This document shows, in pieces, positions 36,001-39,000 of a stretch of DNA of 64,000 nt. Position numbers: made by a program. This stretch comes from Escherichia coli (GTDB lineage: Bacteria; Pseudomonadota; Gammaproteobacteria; Enterobacterales; Enterobacteriaceae). The stretch lies in NCBI RefSeq assembly GCF_003018255.1, contig NZ_CP027440.1. The stretch is one strand, 5' to 3'. Each line of letters opens with the position of its first letter. The stretch's first letter is position 1.

Positions 36001-39000
36001 CAATATCAACGCCTTGATTGCCAGCAAAAAACAGCTTATTGACGGTATCGCTCACGAACTGCGAACACCGTTAGTGCGCCTGCGTTATCGACTGGAGATG
36101 AGCGATAACCTGAGCGCCGCCGAATCCCAGGCGTTGAATCGCGATATCAGTCAACTTGAAGCTTTAATTGAAGAGCTGCTGACTTATGCCCGACTCGATC
36201 GCCCACAAAATGAGCTTCATCTTAGCGAGCCAGACCTGCCGTTGTGGCTGTCAACGCATCTGGCAGATATTCAGGCAGTAACGCCCGATAAAACGGTACG
36301 GATAAAAACGCTCGCGCAAGGCCATTATGCGGCGTTGGATATGCGCTTAATGGAGCGCGTGCTGGATAATTTGCTCAATAACGCCCTGCGCTACTGTCAC
36401 TCAACGGTTGAAACCAGCCTGCTACTGTCGGGGAATAGAGCGACATTAATTGTTGAGGATGATGGCCCAGGGATTGCCCCAGAAAACCGCGAACATATCT
36501 TTGAACCTTTTGTTCGCCTCGATCCCAGCCGGGATCGCTCAACCGGCGGCTGCGGGCTGGGGCTGGCCATTGTCCACTCTATAGCACTGGCAATGGGCGG
36601 TACGGTTAATTGTGACACCAGCGAACTGGGTGGTGCCCGCTTCTCGTTCAGCTGGCCGTTATGGCATAACATCCCGCAATTTACCTCTGCCTGACACTAT
36701 GCGCACGGTGGTCAAGTCACCACCATTGTGCTATAAAATAAGGATGTTGTAACTAAAGTGGTTAATATTATGGCGCGTTACGATCTCGTAGACCGACTCA
36801 ACACTACTTTTCGCCAGATGGAACAAGAGCTGGCTGCATTTGCCGCTCATCTTGAGCAACACAAGCTATTGGTTGCCCGCGTGTTCTCTTTGCCGGAGGT
36901 AAAAAAAGAGGATGAGCATAATCCGCTTAATCGTATTGAGATAAAACAACATCTCGGCAACGACGCGCAATCGCTGGCGTTGCGTCATTTTCGCCATTTA
37001 TTTATTCAACAACAGTCCGAAAATCGCAGCAGCAAGGCCGCTGTCCGTCTGCCTGGCGTGTTGTGTTACCAGGTCGATAACTTTTCGCAAGCAGCGTTAG
37101 TCAGTCATATTCAGCACATCAATAAACTCAAGACCACGTTCGAGCATATCGTCACGGTTGAATCAGAACTCCCCTCCGCGGCACGTTTTGAATGGGTGCA
37201 TCGTCATTTGCCGGGGCTGATTACACTTAATGCTTACCGCACGCTCACCGTTCTGCACGACCCCGCCACTTTACGTTTTGGCTGGGCTAATAAACATATC
37301 ATTAAAAATTTGCATCGTGATGAAGTCCTGGCACAGCTGGAAAAAAGCCTGAAATCACCACGCAGTGTCGCACCGTGGACGCGCGAGGAGTGGCAAAGAA
37401 AACTGGAGCGAGAATATCAGGATATCGCTGCCCTGCCACAGAACGCGAAGTTAAAAATCAAACGTCCGGTGAAGGTGCAGCCGATTGCCCGCGTCTGGTA
37501 CAAAGGAGATCAAAAACAAGTACAACACGCCTGCCCTACGCCGCTGATTGCACTGATTAATAGGGATAATGGCGCGGGCGTGCCGGACGTTGGTGAGTTG
37601 TTAAATTACGATGCCGACAATGTGCAGCACCGTTATAAACCACAGGCGCAGCCGCTTCGTTTGATCATTCCACGGCTGCACCTGTATGTTGCAGATTAAC
37701 CCCCGGCTTTCATACTGCCGACCATCTGTTCTGGCCGTACCCAGCTGTCAAACTCGGCTTCGCTAAGATACCCCAGCGCAAGGGCCGCAGCTTTTAAGGT
37801 CAGCCCTTCTTTATGCGCTTTTTTGGCGATCTCGGCGGCTTTGTCATAACCAATGTGGGTGTTAAGCGCAGTCACCAGCATCAGCGATTCATTGAGTAAT
37901 TGATTGATTCGCTCACGATTCGGTTCAATGCCCACTGCGCAGTGTTTGTTGAAACTTTCCATGCCATCTGCCAGCAAGCGCACCGATTGCAGGAAATTAT
38001 GGATCACCATCGGACGGAAGACGTTCAGTTCAAAGTTACCGGAAGCGCCACCCATGTTGATCGCCACATCGTTCCCCATCACCTGACAGCAGAGCATGGT
38101 TAATGCTTCACACTGCGTCGGGTTCACTTTCCCCGGCATGATTGAGCTACCCGGCTCATTTTCCGGGATTGAGATTTCACCAATTCCGCAGCGCGGGCCA
38201 GAGGCCAGCCAGCGGACATCATTGGCAATTTTCATCAGTGACGCAGCCAACCCTTTCAATGCACCGTGCGCCTGAACCAGGGCATCACAGGTCGCCAGCG
38301 CTTCAAATTTGTTCGGCGCGGTAACAAACGGTGCACAGGTAATGACTGCCAGTTCATCTGCTACGCGACGCGCATATTCCGGATGGGTATTTAGTCCAGT
38401 ACCCACCGCTGTACCGCCCAGAGCCAGTTCCGCTACGTGAGGCAGGCTGTATTCGATATGTTTGAGATTATGCTCCAGCATCGCTACCCAGCCGGAAATC
38501 TCCTGCCCCAGCGTTAACGGCGTCGCGTCCTGCAAGTGGGTACGACCGATTTTGACGATATCAGCAAATGCGCGGGATTTTTCACTCAGCGTCTGGGTCA
38601 GGGTTTTAAGTTGTGGAATGAGTTGCTTGCGCAGCGCCAGTAGTGCCGCAACGTGCATCGCCGTCGGAAAGACATCGTTGGAACTTTGGCTTTTGTTCAC
38701 GTCGTCGTTAGGGTGAACTTTACGTTCCATCCCGCGCACGCCACCGAGTAATTCACTGGCCCGGTTAGCCAGCACTTCGTTCATGTTCATGTTACTTTGC
38801 GTGCCGGAGCCGGTCTGCCAGATAGCCAGCGGGAATTCGTCGTCATGCTGTCCTGCCAGTACTTCATCCGCCGCCTGCCGAATGGCGCTCGCTTTCTCTT
38901 CAGACAACAAGCCTAAATCTTCATTAACTTTTGCCGCTGCGCGCTTGGTTAGCGCCAGCGCATGAATCAGTGAGGTGGGCATTTTCTCCGTCGAAATGCG

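Follow-up and report, generated by a model that had tools for sequence, protein, structure and literature searches.

An intact TerB site with a common, apparently neutral position 7 variant lies upstream of tus in a B2-type Escherichia coli chromosome

The question raised by this locus is whether the short sequence between rstB and tus in an Escherichia coli chromosome (contig NZ_CP027440.1, assembly GCF_003018255.1) is an intact TerB site, as a sequence-only reading had proposed, and whether its difference from the K-12 reference is of any consequence. The analysis covered a window of 64,000 nucleotides, and all positions are those of this window unless another accession is named. The gene order near the site is folM, ydgC (minus strand), rstA, rstB, tus, fumC (minus strand) and a class I fumarase gene (minus strand), and the rstA-rstB-tus-fumC context is common to the window, K-12 and LF82. 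Positions 36400-37000 are 100% identical to E. coli LF82 (NC_011993.1, 1661373-1661973), where it is likewise annotated as the tail of rstB followed by the beginning of tus. The features of the site and its neighbours are as follows.

35393-36694, plus strand: rstB, the upstream neighbour, transcribed toward the non-permissive TerB face; context, not part of the element
36737-36759, plus strand: TerB in the canonical 23-bp register, AATAAGGATGTTGTAACTAAAGT, G7 allele, 22/23 match to K-12 TerB
36742-36755, plus strand: Ter core, positions 6-19, GGATGTTGTAACTA, 14/14 match to the consensus GNRNGTTGTAAYKA
36743, plus strand: T7-to-G polymorphism relative to K-12 TerB, at Ter position 7
36770-37699, plus strand: tus, encoding the DNA replication terminus site-binding protein of 309 aa, annotated in LF82 and K-12

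A search of the 64-kb window with the K-12 TerB sequence (AATAAGTATGTTGTAACTAAAGT) returned a single match, the 36737-36759 site, with one mismatch; in 100 shuffles, 0.00 matches were expected at three or fewer mismatches. The core consensus likewise had one exact match within the window (0.06 expected). Position 36742 on the plus strand is the G6 of the G6·C6 pair, with C6 on the minus strand, and it is this C6 base of Ter that forms the Tus-Ter lock. The sequence-only reading had placed the element at 36735-36757 (AAAATAAGGATGTTGTAACTAAA), an interval that contains the whole 14-bp core but is offset leftward by 2 bp from the canonical register. It had also given a gap of 13 bp between Ter and tus; Ter does precede tus, but the true spacing is 10 bp (36760-36769), and the larger figure arose because the end coordinate had been shifted. 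The identification itself was sound, as the site occupies the same rstB-tus intergenic location as in K-12 and is identical in sequence save for Ter position 7. A check for core mismatches found none, with G6 and C6 present and the sole change at the degenerate position 7. The site is very probably TerB, the replication fork trap's tus-proximal Ter, on a B2-type (LF82-like) chromosome. It is already known, textbook E. coli biology, and had been read correctly as such.

Core matches with one mismatch were at chance level in the window (4 seen against 1.76 expected), and those at 28631, 56878 and 58675 were rejected as Ter sites given this frequency. The best of them (TGAAGTTGTAATGA, 58675-58688) has its mismatch at G6, so that a C6 lock would be impossible there.

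The gene next to the site also appears intact. The start of tus is the ATG at 36770, according to the annotation of LF82 and K-12, and the protein of PDB 1ECR opens with MARYDL. A mechanical ORF list began tus at a GTG at 36758, within TerB, adding four codons (MVNI, 36758-36769); with such a start inside TerB, a naive gene caller could conceal Ter within a coding sequence. Tus in the window is identical at 305/309 residues to K-12 Tus and to PDB entries 1ECR, 2EWJ, 2I05 and 2I06. The substitutions relative to K-12 are I23A, V58I, L105F and T136S, none of them at lock or base-contact residues, and the C6-pocket and key contact residues are unchanged (E49, I79, F140, H144, G149 and R198). T136S is already on record for S88, a B2 strain; the change was rated conservative, and the residue has minimal backbone contact (Goodall et al. 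2021, PMC8347550). Downstream, tus (plus strand) and fumC (minus strand) converge, and their 3' ends overlap by 4 bp (37696-37699, TTAA) with shared stop codons. This overlap leaves no space for a terminator between the two genes, and the K-12 and LF82 annotations are the same.

TerB was also taken by the sequence-only reading to place the window in the terminus region of the chromosome, and this agrees with the position in LF82, near 1.66 Mb, with the presence of a matS site, with the polarity of the KOPS and with a GC skew that is negative. An exact copy of the matS consensus (GTGACAGTGTCAC) lies at 56339-56351, where 0.01 would be expected by chance; matS is the motif bound by MatP in the Ter macrodomain. 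The window holds two KOPS (GGGNAGGG), at 4511 and 42660, both on the minus strand and none on the plus strand, and the plus strand has an overall GC skew of -0.025, with negative values in six of the eight 8-kb bins. Skew and KOPS polarity together mean that the usual fork here moves leftward (counter-clockwise) and that dif lies to the left of the window; a dif site was looked for across the 64-kb window and was not found. The window belongs to the Ter macrodomain, on the fork trap's right-hand side, within the replichore that is copied counter-clockwise, and TerB anchors it on the chromosome map. The gene order and strand of TerB match those of K-12 and LF82. The non-permissive face of TerB is the position-1 (left) side. 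A leftward fork would thus meet the permissive, position-23 side, while a clockwise fork would be blocked. The orientation-dependent trap that had been proposed fits the published polarity of TerB, as terC, B, F, G and J block clockwise forks (PMC8347550).

Across the 74 bp from 36727 to 36800, the sole difference from MG1655 is the T-to-G change at Ter position 7 (36743), which is the N of the Ter consensus. Of 5426 complete E. coli genomes, 5423 contain the rstB-TerB-tus region, and TerB alleles were counted with 34-nt megablast queries, which do not seed across the discriminating base, so that each retrieves its own allele only. The counts were as follows.

T7, K-12 type TerB allele: 2358 complete E. 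coli genomes
G7, AATAAGG allele, that of the window: 1372 complete E. coli genomes
G7, ATTAAGG allele: 1262 complete E. coli genomes, spotted in sampled genomes including O157:H7
Unclassified alleles: about 430 genomes, by subtraction from 5423

G7 alleles are present in at least 2634 of the 5426 complete genomes, against 2358 with T7. The T7 TerB of reference K-12 is not the majority allele among sequenced E. coli, and the G7 alleles together outnumber it. Nissle 1917, NC101 and ATCC 11775 are among the genomes that carry exactly the version seen in the window. Position 7 is known to vary among E. coli phylogroups (Goodall et al. 2021, PMC8347550), and the base there is reported to affect the stability of the complex little and to be free of base-specific contacts from Tus (PMC8347550). 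A T7-to-G change at a core position that is not contacted should be functionally neutral, and TerB in the window appears to be an intact site with a common natural variant that is apparently neutral.

Several observations on the wider locus came from the same genomes. In sampled E. coli, intergenic SNPs concentrate upstream of 36727 (36689-36726), and the stretch that holds the -10-like element, Ter and spacer (36727-36769) is nearly invariant except at Ter positions 2 and 7 and for rare spacer SNPs. The rstB-TerB-tus region had no match in three or four of the 5426 complete genomes, and in one assembly it sits on a record labelled as a plasmid. In E. coli KTa005 (NZ_CP147084.1, 2203171-2206624), a fragment with tet(A)-tetR(A) and Tn3-family transposase sequence has inserted about 20 bp past the rstB stop codon.

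Conservation beyond E. coli was examined in a cross-species scan with one genome per species, using the DNA pattern GTTGTAAYKA, followed by 6-30 nt and then ATGNNNCGNTAYGAY. There were 98 matches. In 83 of them a Tus homologue (46-98% identity) came next; the remaining 15 were chance matches in unrelated phyla, and were used as a control. The genera that carry Ter-tus include Escherichia, Salmonella, Citrobacter, Enterobacter, Cedecea, Franconibacter, Pantoea, Erwinia, Mixta, Proteus, Yersinia, Prodigiosinella and Affinibrenneria, among others. The features scored at Ter positions 6-9 were not imposed by the search pattern, and gave the following tallies.

G at Ter position 6: 83/83 tus-proximal sites, 2/15 control matches
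Base at Ter position 7: T 66, G 12, C 3 and A 2 among the 83 sites; G 4, C 4, T 4 and A 3 among the 15 control matches
A at Ter position 8: 83/83 tus-proximal sites, 5/15 control matches
T at Ter position 9: 72/83 tus-proximal sites, 4/15 control matches

Between Ter position 23 and the ATG lay 6-11 bp in 78 of the 83 Enterobacterales species, where the pattern permitted 2-26. These data independently reproduce the "vicinal Ter" architecture of Toft et al. 2021 (PMC8707476). The sequence, orthology and orientation of the site, an intact Tus, and the conservation of the TerB module are direct observations. A side finding was that, in the assembly of Erwinia aphidicola JCM 21238, two scaffolds agree exactly in the Ter 23-mer, the gap and the Tus N-terminus, through either duplication of the tus/Ter module or redundancy in the assembly.

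The position of TerB so close to the tus start raises the matter of its place in the tus promoter, for which three further features can be listed.

36709-36714, plus strand: weak candidate -35 element, TGGTCA (4/6), 17 bp 5' of TATAAA; by inspection, low confidence
36729-36737, plus strand: candidate extended -10 element of the tus promoter (TGcTATAAA), with TG at 36729-36730, one base n, and TATAAA at 36732-36737; manual reading
36756-36769, plus strand: end of Ter and the 10-bp spacer, with a Shine-Dalgarno-like AAGTGGT at 36756-36762, 7 nt before the ATG

The last base of the candidate -10 is Ter position 1 (36737), and five Escherichia and two Salmonella genomes share TGTGCTATA at the 5' boundary of Ter, with variation further upstream. 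A sigma-70 consensus scan of 36550-36900 found no canonical promoter; TATAAA was missed by the scanner because the hexamer does not have T at its position 6. The extended -10-like element is a candidate for the tus promoter, and a start about 7 nt past it would fall in TerB, where bound Tus would occlude RNA polymerase. PMC8707476 and PMC8347550 describe autoregulation by Tus through binding to TerB within the tus promoter, and the former cites Roecklein 1991 and 1992 for the repression of tus transcription by Tus. The autoregulatory role claimed in the sequence-only reading is accordingly a published one (refs 23, 24 of PMC8707476), with which the abutting -10-like element seems compatible. 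At its other end, the Shine-Dalgarno-like AAGTGGT spans Ter positions 20-23, so the 3' end of Ter may double as part of the ribosome binding site, and the tight spacing between Ter and the ATG would fit this.

Upstream of the candidate elements, some E. coli strains have a perfect TTGACA across the rstB stop codon (CTGCTTGACAT), and the KTa005 insertion lies in or just upstream of the candidate -35, parting rstB from TerB and tus. An intrinsic terminator was looked for between the rstB stop (36694) and TerB, and none was found; read-through from rstAB would therefore meet the non-permissive face of TerB. Mohanty et al. in 1996 reportedly found that Tus-Ter blocks RNA polymerase in a polar manner.

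By analogy with the literature, binding, lock and autoregulation at this TerB would proceed as follows. Tus, encoded 10 bp downstream, would bind the 23-bp site as a monomer, and a replisome travelling left to right (clockwise) would meet the position-1 side. DnaB would unwind the DNA up to G6·C6, the minus-strand C6 would flip into the Tus pocket (I79, F140, H144, G149), and the fork would stop. The fork is said, in work by Mulcair et al. in 2006, to have to reach the G6·C6 pair before Tus is displaced if the lock is to form. A right-to-left fork, the usual one for the region, would meet the permissive face and displace Tus, and a clockwise fork that had passed dif and TerC would be blocked at TerB. 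As TerC lies inside TerB, most clockwise forks would halt before reaching TerB, whose role in arrest would be that of a back-up. TerB also abuts the candidate tus -10 and probably holds the transcription start, so that bound Tus would repress tus, giving negative autoregulation.

One alternative is that the site is chiefly an operator for tus autoregulation, with fork arrest rare or incidental and conservation driven by gene regulation. It is supported by the presence of TerC in K-12, located about 75 kb deeper on the same side and called the major termination site (PMC8707476), and by the tight distance of 6-11 bp that separates Ter from the tus ATG in different genera, which is what would be expected under promoter, operator or ribosome binding site constraint; the tus-proximal Ter of Cedecea, moreover, may never encounter a fork (PMC8707476). 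Significant pausing is nevertheless still reported at TerB, and beyond the Enterobacteriaceae no barrier lies further in than the tus-proximal Ter (both PMC8707476). The G6 required for the lock is invariant at all 83 tus-proximal sites, and the two roles are compatible with each other, so an operator role that eclipses fork arrest is rather unlikely. That the sequence is instead a chance match or pseudo-Ter with no Tus-dependent function is effectively refuted. An exact 14-bp core is expected 0.06 times and a 22/23 match 0.00 times, the rstB-TerB-tus region recurs in 5423/5426 E. coli genomes, Ter precedes tus in 83 species, and K-12 TerB has the highest ChIP-seq coverage (PMC8707476); these outweigh the existence in E. 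coli of Ter-like sequences of low activity (terK, L, Y, Z and outer sites; PMC8347550) and the chance-level occurrence of one-mismatch cores in the window (4 seen, 1.76 expected).

The remaining alternative concerns the G7 base of the site. T7-to-G is the only polymorphism within the core, it divides large groups of genomes (2358 against at least 2634), and Ter sites differ in Tus binding and in lock half-life (PMC8707476), from which it could be argued that the change measurably alters Tus affinity or lock kinetics, and that G7 strains differ from K-12 in the tus set-point or the TerB barrier. This is improbable. Changes at position 7, where there is no base-specific contact, are reported to have little effect (PMC8347550), the TerC core is identical, G7 included, and yet TerC is a strong site, and across genera position 7 is the only core position that varies freely (T 66, G 12, C 3, A 2). 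The more specific form of the argument, in which the T7/G7 split gives slightly different Tus-TerB affinities and hence different autoregulation set-points or back-up barrier strengths by lineage, is likewise improbable, since position 7 is not contacted and the core is identical to that of TerC. A neutral variant in an intact TerB is the preferred reading. TerB in the window brings nothing new to the biology of replication termination; it documents an intact tus/TerB module in a B2-type strain, and the one modest addition is the population count, in which the K-12 reference allele is no more frequent than the G7 alleles.

Among known systems, the closest is K-12 TerB, upstream of tus (b1610), which occupies the orthologous rstB-tus locus on the same strand and in the same orientation, with 10 bp to the ATG and 22/23 bases shared; its flanks, the -10-like element and the spacer, are identical to those of the window. 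Besides the T-to-G change at position 7, the two loci differ by four substitutions in Tus and four SNPs in the upstream intergenic sequence. A 10-bp region between TerB and tus has been described for E. coli (PMC8707476). K-12 TerC (ATATAGGATGTTGTAACTAATAT), located at NC_000913.3 1609157-1609179 in a 50-kb scan, is identical to the window site over positions 5-20 (AGGATGTTGTAACTAA), G7 and the whole core included, and belongs to the same polarity group as TerB, blocking clockwise forks. It differs at positions 1-4 and 21-23, and in lying between yneE and uxaB rather than beside tus, with no part in tus regulation. In ChIP-seq Tus bound six high-affinity sites, TerC being one of them, and both high-affinity Tus binding and polar arrest are known for K-12 TerB (T7) and for TerC with its G7 core (PMC8707476). 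Type I traps, such as those of Edwardsiella tarda and Cedecea neteri (PMC8707476), resemble the window in having a Ter a few bp before tus, with G6/C6 kept. In type I the tus-proximal Ter1 is the innermost barrier, whereas E. coli, of type II, has TerC further in and TerB as a second line. In the RTP-Ter system of Bacillus subtilis neither the protein nor the sites are related to Tus and Ter, binding is dimer-dimer and a base-flip lock of the C6 type is absent; the system is analogous rather than homologous. It is also a polar fork trap, in which a terminator protein acts on asymmetric terminus sites (PMC8347550).
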